Shown: piece after piece, positions 5,387-15,256 of the stretch
Position numbering within the stretch: the first letter of the stretch is position 1
How the letters are laid out: each line of letters starts with the position of its first letter
Source of the DNA: Dehalococcoidia bacterium
GTDB taxonomy: Bacteria > Chloroflexota > Dehalococcoidia > Plut-88900
Direction: 5' to 3'
Assembly: GCA_965197645.1 (NCBI GenBank)
Contig: OZ240219.1
Coordinates: forward strand, 96,001 to 160,000
Length of the DNA stretch: 64,000 nt
Notes under the pieces: generated by a model
What the model saw: only the letters and a program-made list of their open reading frames with translations
Databases searched by the model: none
What the model was told of the DNA's origin: nothing
Translations under genes and position numbers: made by a program

Positions 5387-6865
5387 ATGACATCTCCGGT
5401 AAGAGTCAGATACGCACCAAGTCCGACAGGGCTGCCCCATGTGGGCAACATTCGTACCGCCCTGTTCAACTGGCTGTTTGCTCGCCACAATGACGGTGTG
5501 TTCGTGGTCCGGATCGAGGACACGGATGCAACCAGAAAGGTGGATGGGGCGGTCGAAGCGACTCTTGACGGTCTTCGATGGCTGAAGCTGGACTGGGACG
5601 AAGGGCCTGAGGTGGGGGGCGAGTACGGCCCGTATTTTCAGTCGGAGCGGCTGGACCTGTACCACAGATACTCGGAGCAGCTAACTGGACAGGGCTTGGC
5701 CTACACCTGCTATTGCTCTTCACAGCGGCTGGCAGAGATGCGGAAAGAGCAGCAGCGCAGGAAGGAACCTCCCCGGTACGACCGGAAGTGCCGGGGTCTG
5801 AACGAGGCCGAGAAGCGGGCCGCCGGGGACGTGAGCACCCCCGTGGTCAGGTTCAAGGTGCCCCTGGGAGAGTCGGTTACCTTTACCGACCTGGTCCGAG
5901 AGGAGGTCACCTTCGAGACCGACGTGCTGGACGACTTCGTGATAATGAAATCGGACGGGTACCCGACCTACCACCTGGCCAACGTGGTGGACGACCATTT
6001 CATGGAGATATCCCACGTGATGAGGGCCGAGGAGTGGCTTTCCAGCACCCCCAGGCATCTTCTGCTGTACCACGCTTTGGGGTTCCAGCCGCCCGAGTTC
6101 GCGCACCTGCCCATGATCCTGGGGCCGGATAGGTCCAAGATGAGCAAGAGGCACGGCTCCACGGCGCTGCCCGAGTACGAGGAGCAGGGCTATCTGATCG
6201 AGGCGATGATCAACTTTCTATCGTTGCTGGGCTGGGCGCTGGACGATAGGACGGAGCTGCTCAACCTGGACCAGCTGATCGAGCATTTCACCATAGAGCG
6301 GGTGGGGAAGACGGGGGCTATCTTCGACGCCGACAAACTGAACTGGATGAACGGTGTCTACATTCGAAAGCTGTCGGTGGACGAGCTGGTGGAAAGGGGG
6401 CTTCCTTTTCTCGAAAGAGACCTGTCCCCCAAAGTGCCTAGGCTTCTGGACCGGGAATACGTGGCCAGGATAGTGCCGCTGGTGCAGGACCGCGCCAGGA
6501 CCCTGGGAGAGCTGGCAGACCTGATGGAGTTCTTCTTCCTTGAGCTGGAGTACGATCCGGCTCTGCTGGTGCCGAAGAAGATGGACGGCGCCGGGGCGTT
6601 GCAAGCCCTGCTAACGGCGGAGGAAAGGCTCGGGGGTTTGGCGTCCTTCGACCAGGGAAGTTTGGAAGATTTGCTGAGGCCGTTGGCCGAGGAGCTGGGG
6701 GTGAAGACGGGACAGCTGTTCGGCGCGCTAAGGGTGGCTACAACCGGCCGGACGGCCGCTCCACCCCTTTTCGAGACGATGGAGGTACTCGGAAAGACGC
6801 GATGCATGGAACGGATAGAGAGGGCCATACGACTGTTGAAGGGGTCCGCTCCCAGTGGGGCTTAG
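5387..6865 (+). CDS. gltX: Glutamate--tRNA ligase
   Basis: RYAPSPTGLPHVGN (HIGH-like), RIEDTD and KMSKR. Confidence 0.97.
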   Translation: MTSPVRVRYAPSPTGLPHVGNIRTALFNWLFARHNDGVFVVRIEDTDATRKVDGAVEATLDGLRWLKLDWDEGPEVGGEYGPYFQSERLDLYHRYSEQLTGQGLAYTCYCSSQRLAEMRKEQQRRKEPPRYDRKCRGLNEAEKRAAGDVSTPVVRFKVPLGESVTFTDLVREEVTFETDVLDDFVIMKSDGYPTYHLANVVDDHFMEISHVMRAEEWLSSTPRHLLLYHALGFQPPEFAHLPMILGPDRSKMSKRHGSTALPEYEEQGYLIEAMINFLSLLGWALDDRTELLNLDQLIEHFTIERVGKTGAIFDADKLNWMNGVYIRKLSVDELVERGLPFLERDLSPKVPRLLDREYVARIVPLVQDRARTLGELADLMEFFFLELEYDPALLVPKKMDGAGALQALLTAEERLGGLASFDQGSLEDLLRPLAEELGVKTGQLFGALRVATTGRTAAPPLFETMEVLGKTRCMERIERAIRLLKGSAPSGA

Positions 6866-6880
6866 AAACGGAGAAGCGTC

Positions 6881-7346
6881 AATGGCGGCAGCAACCATGT
6901 GCGGCGTGCACAAGCTGATCTCGGATGTGTCGGTGTTGGCGGAGAGCAAGGTGCTGATGGTCAGGTACGCCGACACCGAAAAGCACGATAACCAGCAGGG
7001 TTGGTTCCTGCCGGACACTCTGCTCTCGGACCTGGAGCATCCTGATGAGGCGGCCCGGAGAGTGCTGACGGATGATCTCGGGCTGGCCGAGCCTTCGGCT
7101 GAGCTAGGCGATATCGAGTCGTTCAAGGGAAACGATGGCACGTGGCACCTGGCCTTCCACTACACGGCAAAGCTGTACGGGCCAATCGAGCTACCGCCTA
7201 AGGACAAGGTAAGGGAGAGTAAGTGGTTCCCCCTGGACCGGCTACCGCCCAGATCGGAGGTGGCGCACCACGGATGGGCGCTGGGGGTGCTGAAGAGGAT
7301 CACCTCGGACTCGCTTGCGCTTGACGGGCGCGTTCTGGCAGAATAG
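6881..7346 (+). CDS. NUDIX-domain protein with degenerate Nudix box
   Basis: WFLP....LEHPDEAARRVLTDDLG resembles a Nudix box that has lost its conserved Glu residues. Start approximate. Confidence 0.6.
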
Positions 7347-7356
7347 TCGGTAGAGT

Positions 7357-7430
7357 TGGGGAATCGTCTAGTGGTAGGACAACGGACTCTGGATCCGTAA
7401 GCCCTGGTTCGAATCCAGGTTCCCCAGCCA
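7357..7430 (+). tRNA. tRNA-Gln (anticodon CTG)
   Basis: Cloverleaf TGGGGAA...TTCCCCA-G-CCA, anticodon arm ACGGA-ctCTGga-TCCGT, GGTTCGAATCC T-arm. Confidence 0.96.
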
Positions 7431-7548
7431 ACTTTTTCTCAGATTTTTCAACTTACAAAGAGCCAGTAGCAATAGGAGTCAGCACTCGGTGACCAAGCTG
7501 TTTCGGCGCCTTGAGGCAACCGAGTCGAAAAGTACCTAGATCAGAGCT

Positions 7549-8826
7549 ATGACCAGCATGGAGACATCTCCCCGGAACCGGCTGGAGCGGTTCCTCCCGG
7601 CCCTGTTCCAACGGGACTACCGCGTGATGTGGTATGGGCACCTCTCCGGAGAATCGGCATCCTGGGCCATGGGCGCCGCCGAAGGCTGGCTCATCTTCAA
7701 TCTCACCGGCAGCAGCACCTGGGTGGGGGCCATATTCCTGGTGGCTATGCTTCCCTGGTTCGTGGTGCCGGTGATCGCCGGTTATCTGATCGATCGGTTC
7801 GTCCGGCGGGACATACTGGCATGGGCGTACGTGGTAAGCCTCCTGCACAGCTTTACCCTCGCATTTCTGGTCCTCACCGGTGCGATCCAGCCGTGGCACA
7901 TACTTCTCCTGGCCTTCATCAACGGCAGCTCCAGGGCCGTTCACATGGGCGCTATGGAAGCGCTGGCCGCCAATCTGGTGCCGGAGAAAACCCTGCCCAA
8001 CGCTTACATCCTGGTCAACGCTGGCTACTACGCCACCCGCCTGATCGGCCCCGGACTGATTGCGCCGATTGTGGACGAGATCGGCCTTGAGTGGATCTTC
8101 TTCGGCTGCACCGCCTTCTACGGGGTAGGCGTGTCCATGATCCTTATGATCCGCACCCGATCGACCGGAGTCGTTGAACACGGGAAGGGACTGCGTCACA
8201 ACGTGTTTACCGGTTTCGCGTACGTCTACGGGCACCCGGTGTTGCGCAGCATCATCCTCGTGGTGATGTTCCACTGAATACTGATAATGTCATTTGAATC
8301 GCTCGTGCCAGCGATTTCGGAAAACCAGCTAGACGCCGGGGGCGGCGGAGTGGCGTACATCAACATGATGGTCGGCCTGGGGGCCCTGTTGCTTTCCATC
8401 GCAGTACTCCCGATAAGAAGCCAAGCATTGATAGGACGGCTCTTCTTGATCTCTGCCGTAGTCAGCATCGTCGGCAATGTGATTCTTGCGCTGGCGCCCA
8501 CTCTTCTCATCGCCATGCTGGGAACAGTGGTGATAGGGATCTCCCATACCGGTTTTATGACTATGGCCACTATCATGATCCAGGTGATAGCTCCCGATAG
8601 CATGCGCGGGCGCATCACAGCCATCTATCTGATTCATGCCGGAGGCATCATGGGTTTTTCCTACTTCGCCAACGGGGTTCTCGCCGATATCTTCGACCCC
8701 AGCTGGGTACTCCTGGTGGGGAGCATGGCCTTTTTGGTTGTACTCATGGCCAGTGCCTTCATACGCACCCCGAGGCGTCTGTACCACGCCGGCATTTCCA
8801 CACAGGCGGGCATGGTTCCCAGCTAG
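7549..8826 (+). CDS. MFS transporter with in-frame TGA at codon 243 (candidate selenocysteine; otherwise a nonsense pseudogene)
   Basis: ORFs 7549-8277 and 8287-8826 are in the same frame. Joined (425 aa) they align end to end with paralog 9122-10405. TGA 8275-8277 corresponds to the paralog's TGC at 9854-9856. Confidence 0.8.
8293..8321 (+). promoter_or_regulatory. Candidate bacterial SECIS hairpin
   Basis: TTTGAATCGCT-CGTGCC-AGCGATT(T)CGGA can form an 11-bp stem with two G-U pairs and one bulged U. The 6-nt loop has GU at positions 2-3 and starts 27 nt after the UGA. Confidence 0.55.
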
Positions 8827-8854
8827 GCGGTCGTACTCGGTAACTTCGGGACGG

Positions 8855-9005
8855 CGTCCGGAGCCCGGCGGCGTCTCTCAGATACGATTTTACCCTCCCG
8901 CTCAGAAAGGGCCCCCCACCCCAAGCGGTTTTATCCTCCCACCCCGGATTCCATCCGACAGCTCCCCACCCCTGGAAAGAGATCCTGGGAGATGGGTGAA
9001 GGAGG
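8855..9005. repeat. Degenerate GC-rich REP-like intergenic element
   Basis: gtctctcagatacgattttaccctccc... resembles gtccctcagatattatttccgccccc at 43810-43835. Multiple C/G-run hairpins. Confidence 0.4.
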
Positions 9006-9121
9006 TATCCGCGCCGAGGTAACAATCCTGGAATATCGCTGCGGTCAGGCGTATAGTGTGAAGCGTTGTTCCTCCATGGGACCTATGGGCAAGGCAAATT
9101 AGACGGCTGCAACCTACCGGC

Positions 9122-10405
9122 ATGGCCTCAATAGCAGGAGCGAAAGAGCTAGCCCGGGGAAGGCTTTTCCCCGCCCTGACCCACTCCGATTTTCGGCGGA
9201 TGTGGTTTGCCGAAATCTCGGCGAACTCGGCATCGTGGGCGCTCATCACAGCGAAGGCGGTGCTGGTCCACGGACTGGCCGAGAACAATCCCAACGCCTG
9301 GACCGGGTTCGTGATCTTCGCGTCGATGATTCCCTACGTGTTCGTGCCGGTGCTGGGCGGACTGCTGGCGGACCGGTTCGTTAGAAAGAACCTGCTGGCG
9401 GTGGCCTATGCGGCCAACATACTGATCAACCTGCTTCTTGCCTTCCTGGTGCTCACCGATATGGTGCAGATCTGGCAGGTGGTGTTGATCTCCTTCGCCA
9501 CCGGAAGCGCCACAGCCATACAGTACGCGGCCGCTGAATCCCTTACGGCGAACCTGGTGCCCAAGAAGTACCTGATCAACGCCTACGCCCTGATCAATGC
9601 GGTGTTTCACTCGACGAGACTGATGGGGCCCGGGGCGATCGCGCCGCTGGTCGATCGGATGGAACCGGGCTGGATATTCCTGATGTGCGCCGGCGCCTTC
9701 ATGGTAGCGCTGCCTCTGGCGTTGAGCATAAAGACAATCTCGACCGGTGAGGTGGAGGAGGCTAAGAGCGTCCTCTACAACCTGGCCGCCGGGTTCAAGT
9801 ACACCTATTCGCACCCGATCATATGCAGCATCATCCTGCTGGTGCTGTTCCACTGCGCCCTCACCATGTCATTCGAATCGATGTTGCCTGCGATCTCCAA
9901 ATTCAGATTGGATGCCGGAGACAGCGGCGTATTCTACATGAGCATGATGGTGGGTGCTGGGGCGCTCGTGATCTCGTTGGGGATCGCTCCACTGCGGGGC
10001 GAGGGCCTTCGCGGACGGCTTTTCCTGTTGCTCGCATTGGGCAGCTCCCTCAGCCCCCTGATGCTGGCAGTTGCCCCCAACCTCGCCTTAGCCATGATAG
10101 GGACAACTGTAATGGGCGCCACCCAGGCCGGGTTCATGGTGATTTCGTCGACGATGATCCAGTCGGTGGTGTCGGATGCTGTACGGGGCCGGGTGACCAG
10201 CATCTACGTGATCCACGCCGGAGGAATCATGTCGTTTGCCATGCTCGGCTACGGACGTCTGACTGACTCCATCGATCCAGGATGGATTCTGAGCGTGGGC
10301 GGCCTGGCTTTCATGGCAATAATCCTGGGGAGCGTGTTAGTGACGACAATCCGGCGGCTGTACTGGGTTGGGGTGCCTATGCCCGTTGGCGGCGGCTCCG
10401 AGTAG
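9122..10405 (+). CDS. MFS transporter, Cys-containing paralog of 7549-8826
   Basis: About 12 hydrophobic segments, GLLADRFVRK motif A, VSDAVRGRV, FHCALTMSFES. Confidence 0.92.
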   Translation: MASIAGAKELARGRLFPALTHSDFRRMWFAEISANSASWALITAKAVLVHGLAENNPNAWTGFVIFASMIPYVFVPVLGGLLADRFVRKNLLAVAYAANILINLLLAFLVLTDMVQIWQVVLISFATGSATAIQYAAAESLTANLVPKKYLINAYALINAVFHSTRLMGPGAIAPLVDRMEPGWIFLMCAGAFMVALPLALSIKTISTGEVEEAKSVLYNLAAGFKYTYSHPIICSIILLVLFHCALTMSFESMLPAISKFRLDAGDSGVFYMSMMVGAGALVISLGIAPLRGEGLRGRLFLLLALGSSLSPLMLAVAPNLALAMIGTTVMGATQAGFMVISSTMIQSVVSDAVRGRVTSIYVIHAGGIMSFAMLGYGRLTDSIDPGWILSVGGLAFMAIILGSVLVTTIRRLYWVGVPMPVGGGSE

Positions 10406-10425: not shown

Positions 10426-10938
10426 TCAACCCTTCGAAGGGGTCATCTCCCGGCTGAGCTGGTCGAGCACCAGTTGATCGGTGGGGAAGGCCAGGGGCTC
10501 GGGTGGATTATCCGGCCGGAAATAGTCCACCAGGTCCAAATCGTCGCCGGCCTGAAGTGTCCCTCCGACTACCGTCCCACTGAACCAGATGCCGACGGTC
10601 AGGGAGTCGGGATCGTGGAAGTTGGAGTGTACGGTGTACACAGGCCCCACCTCGACCTGCAGACCTGTCTCCTCCAGAAGCTCCCGATAGGCGGCTTCGC
10701 GCACGTCTTCACCCCACTCGACGTAGCCGCAGGGGATGCACCATGCGCCTCGATAGCGCCCCCGTGCCCTTCGACCGAGCAATACGCGGCCGTCATCGAT
10801 GAGGATCACTGCCACACCGGTGACGGGATTTCGGTAGAGGACGTAGGAGCAACTGGAACAGACCAGCCGGTCTCGGTCGCCCTTGCGCCGGCTTTCGAGC
10901 CCGCTCCCGCATTTCGGACAGTAGCTGAATTCGGTCAT
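10426..10938 (-). CDS. NUDIX hydrolase with N-terminal zinc ribbon
   Basis: CPKCG...CSSC and the Nudix box GYVEWGEDVREAAYRELLEETG. Confidence 0.9.
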   Translation of the reverse strand: MTEFSYCPKCGSGLESRRKGDRDRLVCSSCSYVLYRNPVTGVAVILIDDGRVLLGRRARGRYRGAWCIPCGYVEWGEDVREAAYRELLEETGLQVEVGPVYTVHSNFHDPDSLTVGIWFSGTVVGGTLQAGDDLDLVDYFRPDNPPEPLAFPTDQLVLDQLSREMTPSKG

Positions 10939-11043
10939 GGCGTAGTGCGGGTATTAGAGCACAAAAGGGGCGCATTAACTACGGCATCCGGGGCAGACCG
11001 TTGACGTTGTAATCTTCGAACGAAAGGCAGCAAGGAGGAAGCT

Positions 11044-11223
11044 ATGACCAATCCTGTAGTCCATTTCGAGGTGGGAGTTAAGGACGGCAAAGCCGGGCAG
11101 GAGTTCTATTCAAACCTGTTCGAGTGGAGCATCAACGCCGAGCACGTAGCGGTCGGAAAGATGCTCTACGATGCCATCAAGTATCCGAAGCACAGTCGAC
11201 CGGCTCGAAGCGCTCGGCGATGA
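11044..11223 (+). pseudogene. Truncated VOC/glyoxalase-family gene fused to unrelated sequence
   Basis: Strong AAGGAGG SD, then MTNPVVHFEVGVKDGKAGQEFYSNLFEWSI (VOC N-terminus). Similarity is lost after about 31 aa and the frame stops at 59 aa. Confidence 0.6.
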
Positions 11224-11605
11224 TGAGGAGGTTAGGTGGGAGATGTATCGCGAAGCCGGTAACGACGGCGACGAGGTAGACGAGAAGCCGTTTTACGAAA
11301 CTATAGCGATCGTTGACGATGAAGACGATACGCCAGCTACCTTCGTCTATTTCCCTCAGGGCGCGCTCTATCGCCCTGCCTTGAGTCTCGCCTTTGAGAA
11401 CGTGCCACCATCCGCCCCGGAAGACTACGCGAATCTGCCTGTGAACCCGTTTTTGGCCCGGTGGCGGCTGCATATGACCGATTATACGCCTTCAAAGCCA
11501 GCGTCCAGGATTGTGTCATCCCCGAAAGATCAACCCAAAACGATGTCGTTCTCCTTGGGGAAGCAGTCAGACCGCCGTTTATCGCCAAGGTATTTTGCGC
11601 CCTGA
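11171..11605 (+). pseudogene. Fragment of an acidic hypothetical protein
   Basis: Protein-like ORF with no SD, overlapping the VOC fragment in another frame. Likely a decayed remnant. Confidence 0.35.
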
Positions 11606-11714
11606 AACCTCCCGAGAATTGTTAACACCCTCTTAAATACGGGTCGTCCTTCCGGTGCTGGAAGGACGACCCGTATATGTCTTGAGGAATTGTATACTTA
11701 CCCTTGATCCTGAT

Positions 11715-12554
11715 ATGTCGACTGCTTCGGATCGGATAGAAACGGCACGGGCCGCCTACGAGGAGCTGAGGAGCTTCCTGGATGGGATGCCGCCTCTCCG
11801 CTGGAGCAAGACGAGCATGTGCAAAGGCTGGGAGGTGCGGGACGTAGTCGCTCATCTGGTACACGCCCTGAAATATCAGGCCAAGATGGTGCAGCTCGGT
11901 GTGAAGGGCGTGCCGAGACCGGCGGACATCTTCGAGGGGGTCACCCAGGAGATGAGGACCCGGGCCATCGCCCGGGAAGCTCGCCTCCAGAGTGAGAAGC
12001 TGGCAGACCAGCTGCTGCCGGCCTTCACCAACGGGTATCGCGAGATTTTCGATCTGTTCTCGTCGCTGACGGATGAGGAGCTGAACAAGAGGACCTTCCA
12101 TGCCATCGGGCCGGGAGGCGTGGTGAAGGTGAGAACTTATATCGATCTGGTCATCCTGGAGACGACCCTGCATAGCTGGGATATCCGGTACGCGCTGGAC
12201 CCATCGGCTAGGTTGACGCCGCCGAGTGTGCCCGTGCTTATGGGATATGCCTCGGCTTGGCTGCGGCGGACCCTACACCCGGCCGCGAGGAACGGGGAAG
12301 CGCTTAGATACCGGCTCAGGGTTGGTGATTGGCCGGAGACGATATCGGACATCCTGGTCCAGGGAGATGACTTCAGTCGCGTGGAGCCGGTCAGTCCGGA
12401 GGTCACGGCCACCCTTACATGTGACGTGGACAGCTTCCTGTTGCTCCACTTCGGGAGATTCGGGTTTCTACAGGCCATCGAGTCGGGTCGATTGGAGGCG
12501 GAAGGCGACGTCGAAGCCGTTGGGTTGCTGGACGCCTGGACACGGCCGGTCTGA
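11715..12554 (+). CDS. Maleylpyruvate isomerase family (MDMPI/DinB-like) protein
   Basis: CKGWEVRDVVAHL and ETTLHSWDI metal-binding motifs, C-terminal SCP2-like region. Start at ATG 11715. Confidence 0.85.
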   Translation: MSTASDRIETARAAYEELRSFLDGMPPLRWSKTSMCKGWEVRDVVAHLVHALKYQAKMVQLGVKGVPRPADIFEGVTQEMRTRAIAREARLQSEKLADQLLPAFTNGYREIFDLFSSLTDEELNKRTFHAIGPGGVVKVRTYIDLVILETTLHSWDIRYALDPSARLTPPSVPVLMGYASAWLRRTLHPAARNGEALRYRLRVGDWPETISDILVQGDDFSRVEPVSPEVTATLTCDVDSFLLLHFGRFGFLQAIESGRLEAEGDVEAVGLLDAWTRPV

Positions 12555-12568
12555 GGGCACCGAACCGT

Positions 12569-12597
12569 TTGCTAGGGCCGAGAGGAACGGATATAAT
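12569..12597 (+). promoter_or_regulatory. Sigma70-type promoter of tRNA-Glu
   Basis: TTGCTA-17 nt-TATAAT just upstream of the tRNA, followed by leader hairpin GCCACGGCT-ggg-AGCCGTGGC (12604-12624). Confidence 0.7.
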
Positions 12598-12640
12598 CGA
12601 TAGGCCACGGCTGGGAGCCGTGGCTACCTGATTAACAAGG

Positions 12641-12717
12641 GGCGCGTTCGTCTAGCGGCCCAGGACACCGCCCTCTCAAGGCGGAGATCGCGGGTTCGAA
12701 TCCCGCACGCGCTACCA
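12641..12717 (+). tRNA. tRNA-Glu (anticodon CTC)
   Basis: GGCGCGT...ACGCGCT-A-CCA acceptor, CCGCC-ctCTCaa-GGCGG anticodon arm, GGTTCGAATCC. Confidence 0.96.
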
Positions 12718-12727
12718 GAGACAAACA

Positions 12728-12768
12728 AGGCCCAGGCCCTCTTCGGAGAACCTGGGCCTCAGGTTTTA
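12728..12768 (+). terminator. Probable terminator after tRNA-Glu
   Basis: AGGCCCAGG...CCTGGGCCT inverted repeat followed by a short T run. Confidence 0.5.
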
Positions 12769-12827
12769 CTATCCCCCACGCTGTCCTATAATGGGGCTGC
12801 TTGAGCTTTACTACGCTAGGAGGAGAT

Positions 12828-13628
12828 ATGGCTACTACCCACGAGCGGATGCAAAAGGGCGAAGAGACGATGGAGGAGCTGAGTGGCGGCACTCGAAAGG
12901 CGGCGGGGTTGCCTCAATACGAGGTGGCGCCCGACATGGGCCAGTGGGTCACCGCCAGTCTATTCGGCGACATATGGGGTCGGCCCGACCTTCCCAAGAA
13001 GATCAGAAGTTTCGCCAGCATGTCCGTGCTAACGGTTACGGGCAAGGAGGCGCAACTCAAGGGCCACGTGAACTTCGCGCTGAACATCGGCTGGAGCAAG
13101 GAGGAGATATCGGAGCTGTTCTACCACCTGGTGCTCTACGGAGGACTTCCCTCGGCGCTCAACGCACTGGGAGTGGCCAGGGATGTGTTCAAAGACAGGG
13201 GACTCCTCGATCAGCCCATGGAGCCGACGGAAGGTACCGAGGCGACCTTCGAGGAGAGATACGCCAAGGGCATCAAGGTGATAGCCGAGATGTCGGCTAC
13301 GGATGCTACGGAATTCTCCATGGGCGACGACGTGGCGATGGTACACGGCATGGAGGACCACATCATATCGAGCCTTTTCGGCGACGTATGGAGTCGGGAC
13401 GTGCTGCCGAAGAAGGTCCGGAGTATCGCCACCATGTCGGCGTTGACAGCGCTGGGAAAGGAACCTCAGCTGGAGGCCCACCTCAACTGGGGGCTGAACA
13501 TCGGCTGGACCAAAGAGGAGATATCGGAGCTGTTCTTCCACCTGGCGTTCTACTGTGGTCTGCCGGCCGTGCTCAACGGACTGAGGGTAGCCAGAGGAGT
13601 GTTCAAGGACCGGGGGCTGGTCTCCTGA
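12828..13628 (+). CDS. Carboxymuconolactone decarboxylase (CMD) family protein, tandem two-domain
   Basis: Two repeats of LFGD(I/V)W.R..LPKK.RS...H.N..LNIGW.KEEISELF.HL..Y.GLP. AGGAGG SD before ATG 12828. Confidence 0.88.
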   Translation: MATTHERMQKGEETMEELSGGTRKAAGLPQYEVAPDMGQWVTASLFGDIWGRPDLPKKIRSFASMSVLTVTGKEAQLKGHVNFALNIGWSKEEISELFYHLVLYGGLPSALNALGVARDVFKDRGLLDQPMEPTEGTEATFEERYAKGIKVIAEMSATDATEFSMGDDVAMVHGMEDHIISSLFGDVWSRDVLPKKVRSIATMSALTALGKEPQLEAHLNWGLNIGWTKEEISELFFHLAFYCGLPAVLNGLRVARGVFKDRGLVS

Positions 13629-13660
13629 GGGCCTGCGCCCCACGATATAGGAGGGGAGAG

Positions 13661-15256
13661 ATGCAGTATTTCAAGCGCCGGCCGCCGGTATATGGTCGGA
13701 ACGGGATGGTGGCCACCAGCGAGACCCAGGCCGCTATGGCCGGACTCCAGGTCCTGAGGGATGGAGGCAATGCCGTGGATGCGGCGGTAGCCACCTCGGC
13801 CGCGCTCAGCGTTACGGAACCGATGTCGACGGGGATTGGCGGCGACCTTTTCGCCCTGGTGTGGTCGGCCAAGGACCGGAAGGTCTACGCCCTGAACGGC
13901 AGCGGCCGAGCTCCCAAGGGGGCATCTCTGGAGGAGCTGCGCTCCAAAGGGCATAGCCAGATTCCCGGCCACAGCGCCTACGCCGTATCGGTCCCTGGCG
14001 TAGTGGACGGCTGGCGGACCCTGTTGAAGGGCCACGGCTCGAAACGGCTCTCCGAGCTGATGAAACCGGCAATAAAGTACGCCGAAGAGGGGTTCGTGGT
14101 CTCGGAGCAGATAGGCCGCTATTGGGCCAACACCGAGGCGAAGCTGGCCCAGTATCCATCGGGTTCCGAACTGCTGCTAAACGGCCGGGCGCCAAGGGCC
14201 GGCGAGGTGATGAAGCTGCCCGAGCTGGCAGCCACGTTAAAGGCTATAGCCCGCAGCGGGCCCAAGGCGTTCTACCAGGGCAAGCTGGCCAAGAAGATAG
14301 CCGGGTACGTACAAGAGCACGGCGGGTGGCTGGACACCTCGGACCTGTCTCGGCACACTTCCACCTGGGACGAACCGATCTCGACGGACTACCGTGGGGT
14401 CACCTGCTGGCAGTGCCCGCCCAACGGTCAGGGGATCGCTGCCCTGATGGCCCTCAACATCGCCGAAGGGTTCGATATTCGAGGAATGGGATTTCAGAGC
14501 GTCGATACCTACCACCATCTCATCGAGTCTATGCAGCTGGCATTCCAAGACGCCCTCGACCACGTAGCCGACCCGAGCAAAGCCGAGGTCCCCATCCGAC
14601 GGCTGCTGTCCCAGGAACATTCCGCCGAGAGGCGTAGCGCCGTCGGCTACGATCGGGTGCTATCCAGGTCGGACGCAGGCAGGGTGATGGTCCGGGCCGA
14701 TACCGCTTACCTGACGTGCGTCGACGGCAAGGGCAACGCCTGCTCTTTCATCAACAGCCTGTACGAGTCCTTCGGCACAGGCCTGGTGGTACCGGGGACG
14801 GGGATTGCGCTGCAGAACCGGGCATCGCTGTTCTCGTTGGACCCGGACCATCCCAACGCCCTGGCCCCGGACAAGAGGCCCTTTCACACGATAATTCCGG
14901 GCATGGCCACTAGAGGCAACGAGCTGTGGCTATCCTACGGAGTGATGGGCGGTTTCCAGCAACCCCAGGGCCACCTCCAGGTGCTGGCGAACATGGTGGA
15001 CTTCGATCTAGACCCACAGGCCGCACTGGACGCCCTGCGGTTCAGCATTCAGCTTGGGGACGGCGTAGCAATAGAGGCCGAAGTGCCATCGTCTACGATG
15101 GAGGAGCTGCGAAGACGGGGCCACGCCATCATCCCGGTGGACGACCCAACGAGAGGACTGTTCGGCGGAGGCCAGATCATCGAGAGAGATGCGGACTCAG
15201 GAGTCCTACGCGGGGGCACGGAACCTCGCAAGGACGGCCTGGCGGTAGGGTGGTAG
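13661..15256 (+). CDS. ggt: Gamma-glutamyltransferase family protein
   Basis: GGNAVDAAVA, GIGGDLF, autocleavage Thr in DTAYL, PFHTIIP, GVMGG..QPQGH. True start is ATG 13661 after a GGAGG SD. Confidence 0.93.
   Translation: MQYFKRRPPVYGRNGMVATSETQAAMAGLQVLRDGGNAVDAAVATSAALSVTEPMSTGIGGDLFALVWSAKDRKVYALNGSGRAPKGASLEELRSKGHSQIPGHSAYAVSVPGVVDGWRTLLKGHGSKRLSELMKPAIKYAEEGFVVSEQIGRYWANTEAKLAQYPSGSELLLNGRAPRAGEVMKLPELAATLKAIARSGPKAFYQGKLAKKIAGYVQEHGGWLDTSDLSRHTSTWDEPISTDYRGVTCWQCPPNGQGIAALMALNIAEGFDIRGMGFQSVDTYHHLIESMQLAFQDALDHVADPSKAEVPIRRLLSQEHSAERRSAVGYDRVLSRSDAGRVMVRADTAYLTCVDGKGNACSFINSLYESFGTGLVVPGTGIALQNRASLFSLDPDHPNALAPDKRPFHTIIPGMATRGNELWLSYGVMGGFQQPQGHLQVLANMVDFDLDPQAALDALRFSIQLGDGVAIEAEVPSSTMEELRRRGHAIIPVDDPTRGLFGGGQIIERDADSGVLRGGTEPRKDGLAVGW

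Follow-up and report, generated by a model that had tools for sequence, protein, structure and literature searches.

Among bacterial selenoproteins, the family table and text of the 2026 review PMC13188914 list a number of predicted membrane transporters that contain selenocysteine (Sec; U in motifs), namely the YeeE/YedE thiosulfate family (GUxSG), the ABC permease SaoP, the SO_0444-family Cu/Zn efflux proteins (UxC), a putative mercuric transport protein, and an E1-E2 cation ATPase. Most of these listed proteins are implicated in metal or metalloid handling, and their Sec may be a ligand (PMC13188914). In each of them, some organisms have Sec in place of a Cys of functional importance, using UGA and an in-frame bacterial Sec insertion sequence (SECIS). 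Here, we describe a gene of similar design at positions 7549-8826 (plus strand) of a 64,000-nucleotide stretch of DNA from a Dehalococcoidia bacterium. This stretch, hereafter the window, corresponds to positions 96001-160000 of a genome that is assembled as a single contig of 3.21 Mb, has a G+C content of 60.8%, and is 94% complete by marker genes. We are confident that 7549-8826 is one functional gene for a 425-residue MFS_3 / DHA3-like transporter, in which the UGA at codon 243 is decoded as Sec. While none of the transporters listed in PMC13188914 belongs to the major facilitator superfamily (MFS), here Sec would lie in transmembrane helix 7 (TM7) of a 12-helix secondary transporter. The listed families YeeE/YedE (PF04143), SaoP (NF040733), and SO_0444 (NF033936) gave no match among our Pfam and NCBIfam results at E <= 0.001.

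The mechanism that we propose is the one used by bacterial selenoprotein genes. With the ribosome at the UGA, SelB carrying Sec-tRNA(Sec) would bind a hairpin within the coding sequence (8293-8321, plus strand) and deliver Sec, after which translation would go on through TM7-TM12. Sec would thereby stand in for a Cys in the middle of TM7 that is invariant in the subfamily.

One frame interrupted by a UGA

The frame that runs from ATG 7549 to TAG 8824-8826 has 425 codons and a sole internal stop, the TGA at 8275-8277 (codon 243), and gene callers split it into open reading frames (ORFs) 7549-8277 and 8287-8826. In a preliminary description of the window, these two ORFs had been read as a single frame broken by one TGA, which our translation of the frame bears out, and the UGA had been placed opposite a Cys of the neighboring paralog. 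This paralog is a tandem gene of the same MFS subfamily (9122-10405, plus strand; 427 residues compared to 425), which is 47% identical over 410 residues. The alignment of VVMFH-TGA-ILIMSFES to its LVLFH-C-ALTMSFES is indeed free of gaps, with the Cys encoded by TGC 9854-9856, and the UGA thus falls on the column of an invariant Cys, within an H-C motif. Including the tandem paralog, the genome contains two more Cys members of this H-C subfamily, the other one being 43% identical (C1:165820-167055, minus strand).

When 41 related genomes were searched in six frames with stops read through, six loci of 72-100% identity were found, whose frames of about 426 codons are each open except for a single TGA. 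These are the gene itself and its orthologs in four species of genus g4 and one species of genus g3. The five orthologs, from two genera other than that of our genome, are 72-74% identical to it, with a synonymous divergence (dS) above 1. The TGA is in the identical column in six out of six loci, in the context FH-U-[IT]L[IV]MSFESLVPAIS, while slightly more distant orthologs and all the paralogs that were examined carry Cys. One of these genera, g3, also has an additional Cys copy, which is 52% identical.

Wider searches delimit the distribution of the two forms. No additional TGA at the codon-243 column was detected in 401 genomes of the class, and a scan of the genomes of 185,579 species returned nine loci, which are five known TGA forms and four Cys orthologs (66-69% identity). 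In a collection of 5.8 billion proteins, the closest full-length relative is a Cys form (P0003, 80% identity), and three metagenomic protein clusters end exactly at ...FH: P0123 (239 residues, 86% identical), P0124 (244 residues, 109 members), and P0125 (268 residues). The H-C pair is found in all subfamily rows with identities of about 30% or more (18 of the 32 rows in one set and 20 of the 21 in another), and the rows without it are distant MFS proteins with less than 29% identity. Other candidates for MFS genes with an internal TGA were considered and rejected. The TGA of L043 proves to be its true C-terminal stop, the alignments of L075 and L076 contain no stop, and the TGA of G346 occupies another column, its motif having the Cys. 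No second Sec-MFS family was found among these four candidates.

Contigs from two other studies span 7549-8311 and 8019-8311, with 32 and 5 differences, respectively, none of which lies between 8166 and 8382. Where contigs of these runs cover 8237-8311, codon 8275-8277 is unchanged, against 28-32 differences at other places. Since there are no differences around 8275-8277, related strains in these studies also carry TGA, and not TGC, at this position. In addition, two contigs from RNA libraries of sponge metagenome runs are 100% identical to the gene over 7876-8043 and 8664-8826, and they hint weakly at transcription both before and after the TGA. The RNA contigs of X10 and X11 cover only 5 of 30 bins each.

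Selection acts equally on the two halves of the gene. Between our genome and g4, the ratio of nonsynonymous to synonymous divergence (dN/dS) is 0.133 upstream of the TGA and 0.155 downstream (dS of 1.15 and 1.39, respectively), and between our genome and g3, it is 0.168 upstream and 0.144 downstream. As these values are similar, purifying selection is the same downstream of the TGA as upstream of it. What decay of the Sec transporter looks like can be seen in G008, a genome of genus g4 that lacks the intact gene. Its remnant (L077 1353-1834; G008:C1, about 1340350-1340830) covers only residues 264-424, is shifted in frame near residue 300, and has a TAG at the column of W386.

The near-complete host genome contains selA, selB, selC, and selD. 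ARAGORN predicts a tRNA-Sec with anticodon TCA, which scores 66.4 bits with Rfam model RF01852 (gathering score 47); SelA (449 bits) is encoded 3 kb before the window; SelB is recognized by a wing_3 domain within a 621-residue frame; and selD itself carries one in-frame TGA. SelA is present in 12 of the 12 genomes of the taxonomic family.

The hairpin downstream of the UGA

The preliminary description had pointed to a hairpin directly downstream of the UGA, with GU at loop positions 2-3, and folding confirms both. The upper stem consists of eight pairs, one of them G-U (8296-8303 with 8310-8317), it is extended below to 8293 and 8321 with one bulged U, and the apical loop is CGUGCC (8304-8309). 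The UGA is separated by 26 nt from the loop, whose first base is the 27th, and the loop G (G8305) lies 27 nt after the UGA, which is the same distance as in selD of the same genome. The 36-nt element folds with -9.1 kcal/mol in five of the six Sec genes and -8.3 kcal/mol in the sixth. These values fall within all the criteria published for bacterial SECIS, which are a loop of 3-9 nt (here 6 nt), a stem of 4-16 bp (8 bp), a G as the first or second base of the loop (at position 2, then U), a spacing of 16-37 nt (26 nt), and a minimum free energy of at most -7.5 kcal/mol (-9.1 kcal/mol), as given in PMC13188914. The hairpin of selD (C1:941874) is similar in that it follows a UGA at a Cys-type position and has 8 bp and a loop that begins with G-U, at 27 nt from the UGA, but it belongs to the gene of a soluble enzyme, its loop has 3 nt (GUA) instead of 6, and its stem is G+C-rich.

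In contrast, the stem is lost in the Cys forms. At the same place, five out of six of these fold between -1.2 and -5.3 kcal/mol, and the tandem paralog, which had been said to keep little of the stem, reaches -1.8 kcal/mol. The exception is L071, a Cys ortholog in a Chloroflexota metagenome-assembled genome (MAG), which has a different hairpin (about 6694-6760; -10.3 kcal/mol) whose loop is CUUC, with neither of its first two bases being a G.

The longest invariant nucleotide run in the six Sec genes, from three genera, covers the hairpin. It is 35 nt long and extends from +10 to +44 as counted from the T of the TGA (8285-8319, plus strand), followed in length by a run of 12 nt around the TGA itself and one of 9 nt, while 40% of third codon positions are invariant across these genes. 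In Cys orthologs, the longest invariant runs are elsewhere, and the hairpin stretch varies at synonymous sites. The codons of the stem were rightly described as atypical, with TTT, GAA, and ATT named. In 496 long ORFs of the genome, TCA accounts for 0.05, TTT for 0.16, GAA for 0.26, CCA for 0.09, and ATT for 0.12 of the respective synonymous sets, and it is the third bases of the minority codons in the invariant stretch that form stem pairs. The loop codon is Val GUG in Sec forms, which supplies the G-U, and Leu in seven of the eight Cys-form sequences, the exception being P0003 with Val. The invariant stretch also leaves a trace in metagenomes. Assemblies of two studies break at 8282-8326, word depth is 62-164x at 8280-8322 compared to 5-9x on either side, and the loose contig ends continue like g4-type sequence. 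This jump in depth and these ends indicate that the invariant element is common to several co-occurring populations and acts as a repeat.

How the Sec form might have evolved can be gauged from a maximum-likelihood tree of the N-terminal 242 residues in 31 rows (7 Sec and 24 Cys). All seven Sec rows and the Cys form P0003 are in one clade, with 100/96 support, which lies inside the Cys forms. Two changes are required on this tree to account for the Sec label, but the well-supported branches are compatible with one origin. Since P0003 shares the Val of the Sec forms at the SECIS-loop codon, it is either a reversal to Cys or a form predating the switch. The coding sequence for E-S-L..P-A-I-S is plausibly a proto-SECIS, inherently half-palindromic and a possible stepping stone. 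We propose that the Sec form would have arisen once, from a Cys ancestor in a marine (SAR202-related) Dehalococcoidia clade in which this coding sequence was partly palindromic beforehand, and that a change from Leu to Val (GUG) and rare synonymous codons would have finished the SECIS. The locus may thus offer a stepwise view of how a SECIS arises from coding sequence that is already partly palindromic.

Alternative explanations and novelty

A number of observations weigh against decoding of UGA-243 as Sec. We infer selenium incorporation and a full-length product from sequence, and the RNA contigs are short, with none across the TGA, and could be DNA carry-over. The query used here did not detect the Sec transporter in 6 of the 12 genomes of the family (five of the nine of genus g4 and G001 of genus g2), and the gene is therefore dispensable. 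Its neighboring genes are not conserved between our genome and genus g4, which bears on the functional part of the reading. As for the hairpin, its stem potential is partly a by-product of the peptide sequence, as illustrated by L071; its loop departs from a common, though optional, sub-pattern with pairing of the first loop base to a later one; and an Rfam scan of 8150-8450 with E up to 10 gave no match, although such a scan is uninformative for elements of this kind. The preliminary description had suggested testing the hairpin for conservation and covariation. The hairpin is conserved, with nucleotide invariance that is limited to Sec forms, but no covariation is seen since the SECIS is 100% identical in all six genes and offers zero compensatory changes, so that the structure rests on conservation, and on the loss of the stem in Cys forms, instead. 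Finally, the folding energy of a 71-nt piece does not stand out from shuffled sequences (z = 0.30; 115 of 200 shuffles are as good), and a lax hairpin rule is also passed by 54 of the 335 TGA-interrupted coding-like frames of the genome. The hairpin is unremarkable by energy and draws its significance from conservation.

Could the TGA be a true stop that splits the transporter into an N-domain of 242 residues and a C-domain of 179 residues restarted at AUG 8287, with the 35 invariant nucleotides as a termination-reinitiation signal? Separately expressed MFS halves can complement each other, this AUG is 9 nt after the TGA, and the halves are called separately by gene callers. However, the break would be in the middle of a helix (residues 230-260 in the structural model presented below) and not in the inter-domain loop (200-229), and the AUG is the codon of M247, which is invariant in the unbroken Cys forms as well and is therefore no special start codon. 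The bases before it contain no GGAGG-like run, consistent with the absence of a Shine-Dalgarno sequence noted earlier. That the stop should fall exactly on an invariant Cys, in a host with full Sec machinery and upstream of a hairpin of SECIS type at selD-like spacing, also makes a split transporter very unlikely. The hairpin is equally relevant to readthrough of the UGA with a residue other than Sec, which could be Cys, delivered by the Sec pathway if selenium is in short supply, or Trp, inserted by near-cognate decoding. Cys is functionally acceptable, as in P0003, the Cys member of the Sec clade with 80% identity, and the identity of the inserted residue is itself a deduction from nucleotides. 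Nevertheless, the downstream element fits the model of a SelB-dependent SECIS, the Sec pathway is complete and includes a Sec-containing SelD, and related Dehalococcoidia MAGs, with 46 and 49 selenoprotein genes, are among the ten bacteria that are richest in them according to the main text of PMC13326102. We give readthrough of this kind a slim chance at best.

A pseudogene shared by descent, in which a C-to-A nonsense change from TGC to TGA was inherited in the clade while the gene is dead or dying, would need one single-base change and would be in keeping with the absence of the gene from half of the family genomes and its decayed remnant in G008. We find it scarcely credible, as a dead gene would not retain 35 invariant bases made of rare codons, nor would it show, in six species of three genera with dS above 1, an open frame of about 426 codons with a downstream dN/dS of 0.12-0.16. 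The real remnant in G008 looks quite different, and the orthologs are not copies made in assembly, with 26-28% protein divergence. The probability of a base-call or assembly error in our genome is practically nil, since the TGA is found in five other genomes, in the contigs of two other studies, and, as the end of truncated protein calls, in more than 100 assemblies.

Reports of new selenoprotein families in bacteria appear regularly. Decoding of UGA-243 as Sec is strongly supported, and the MFS transporter would be a further such family, unusual in that its Sec would be embedded in the transport helix of a secondary transporter. No Sec-containing MFS transporter was found in NCBIfam release 20 or in full-text literature searches. 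There is no MFS selenoprotein in the family table and text of PMC13188914, which contain none of the terms MFS, major facilitator, PF05977, and PF07690. Likewise, the main text of PMC13326102 (BSepDB) has no mention of MFS, transporter, or membrane, although its list of 111 families might include this one, and the text of PMC12013277 (deep-Sep), outside its Table S2, presents no transporter among nine new families. The bacterial selenoproteome would thus gain a membrane-embedded case that is not a redox enzyme, and an annotation error would be corrected in more than 100 database entries truncated at ...FH.

Protein family, possible function, and genomic context

The protein matches the Pfam families MFS_3 (PF05977; 114.6 bits, cut-off 27) and MFS_1 (PF07690; 83.5 bits, cut-off 33.4). 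Its matches in NCBIfam (release 20), which concern DHA3, EntS, Tet(V), Mef, and Tap, are all far below the cut-offs (110.6 versus 319.6 for TIGR00900, 70.9 versus 324 for EntS (NF007792), and 42.7 versus 640 for Tet(V)), so no equivalog name applies. It therefore has the fold and the Pfam family of MFS_3 / DHA3-type exporters but differs from them by these low scores and by an H-C..M..E motif in TM7, which defines a separate subfamily. A broad search of protein collections with the Cys paralog returned generic MFS_3 names only, and to our knowledge, no member of the H-C subfamily has been characterized.

AlphaFold2, run on an alignment of 43 sequences, produced a 12-helix MFS model with a mean pLDDT of 89.8 and a pTM of 0.88. 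Residue 243 is in the middle of helix 230-260, which is TM7, and the inter-domain loop corresponds to residues 200-229. The UGA residue had been assigned to TM7 beside a His and a Glu, and the model concurs, with H242 adjacent and E250 two helical turns away on the same conserved face. Foldseek neighbors include NorA, SV2A, VGLUT2, YajR, VMAT, MdfA, and ferroportin, with 470 MFS matches in the Protein Data Bank (PDB) at E <= 0.001. A PDB profile search was also tried for mapping residue 243, but its only match, GlcP, had the halves swapped and was unusable.

In the 43-sequence subfamily alignment (24-80% identity to the query, with one outlier), conservation of 97% or more is limited to 36 positions, H242, C243, M247, and P254 among them. 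TM7 has the densest cluster of conserved polar residues, H242, C/U243, M247, F249, E250, S251, and P254, in the motif H-C-x-L-x-M-x-F-E-S-x-x-P, and C243, E250, and S257 are on the conserved helical face. MFS proteins have a motif A of the G-x-x-x-D-R-x-x-R-R type in the TM2-TM3 loop. Here, its residues G78, D82, and R86 are kept by 97% or more of the 43 sequences, and so is the second-half counterpart D350-x-x-R353-G-R355. There is no second conserved Cys in this alignment, which favors a single ligand or nucleophile over an intramolecular redox pair. The central cavity of MFS proteins is lined by TM1, 4, 7, and 10, and the periodicity of conservation in TM7 suggests that residue 243 faces it.

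Sec would be a more reactive and permanently deprotonated ligand than Cys, and the selenolate, together with His242, Met247, and Glu250 of the same helix, may contact the substrate or the coupling ion. One possibility, which we put forward tentatively, is an H+-coupled carrier of the MFS_3 type, in which the selenolate or thiolate of TM7 would be in contact with a substrate that is a soft metal or metalloid, or else a sulfur/selenium or thiol-reactive compound. This proposal is drawn from the chemistry of the residue, from the likeness to the Sec transporters reviewed in PMC13188914, and from ferroportin. The likeness to this MFS iron exporter (PDB 6w4s, Foldseek rank 39) is at the level of the fold only, with 13% identity. 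In ferroportin, a TM7 Cys and a His are transition-metal ligands in the C-domain site, which would offer a precedent for metal binding by a thiol or selenol in TM7. More specifically, and just as speculatively, this might be the first secondary active (MFS) transporter with Sec in its translocation pathway, where U243 with His242, Met247, and Glu250 on the cavity face of TM7 would directly bind the substrate, be it a soft metal or metalloid or a compound of sulfur or selenium.

Insertion of Sec comes at a high cost, and the Cys residues that it replaces nearly always have a chemical activity. The switch thus identifies the invariant Cys in TM7 of an abundant marine subfamily as a functional residue, and residue 243 is a precise and testable handle on what these transporters carry. 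If U243 does bind the substrate, the Sec/Cys switch would expose an entire ocean-abundant transporter subfamily of SAR202/Dehalococcoidia that works via a reactive thiol or selenol. In its boldest form, the proposal would be that the subfamily moves selenium or sulfur species; according to PMC13188914, prokaryotes have no known selenium transport system that is both specific and of high affinity.

The genes around the transporter differ between genomes. In our genome, they encode a luciferase-like oxidoreductase, threonine aldolase, LspA, RluD, GltX, a NUDIX protein, tRNA-Gln, a DinB/MDMPI-like protein, a CMD protein, and GGT, with the tRNA-Gln(CTG) gene directly upstream (7357-7430, plus strand), between the transporter gene and the gltX and NUDIX genes. 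In genus g4, they encode a Peptidase_S49 protein, a Rieske protein, an aldo-keto reductase, and unassigned proteins. Clustering of the ORFs at 36 loci, mostly with 1.5-kb flanks, found no recurrent neighbor save for shadow frames and a short-chain-dehydrogenase-like ORF in eight loci. As the sets of neighbors differ and none is recurrent, no operon partner can be claimed. Linkage to selA was considered and dismissed, since selA is 11 kb upstream in our genome but far away in genus g4. A promoter and terminator scan of 7300-9200 revealed nothing above chance.

Downstream of both transporter genes, the region 10426-15256 contains a NUDIX hydrolase gene (minus strand), a DinB/MDMPI-like gene (11655-12554), a tRNA-Glu gene (12641-12717), and a gene for a two-domain CMD/AhpD-like protein (12801-13628). 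The C-terminal part of the product of ORF 12791-15256 reads like gamma-glutamyltranspeptidase, as judged by its translation only. This ORF overlaps the CMD gene in another frame, and its first ~300 residues are Arg/Gly-rich and resemble a shadow frame, which would put the probable start of the actual downstream gene near 13700. These downstream genes have a flavor of thiol metabolism and are not conserved in genus g4.

A crude scan of the genome for TGA-interrupted coding frames followed by a hairpin yielded several further likely selenoprotein genes. They are at C1:257586 (plus), C1:2857140 (plus), and C1:401323 (minus); C1:2776310 (plus) and C1:2793815 (minus); C1:805071 (plus); C1:2802761 (minus); C1:742323 (minus); and C1:941874 (plus), the last of which is selD. 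The context T-U-G-T-G-T-R-S-G is common to three paralogs and V-P-A-U-P to two, and the other contexts are an AhpD-like C-R-Y-U, Y-C-U-I-N-C, and S-W-U-D-G-C. In these likely selenoprotein genes, the distance from the UGA to the loop is 17-27 nt, and the loops begin with G.

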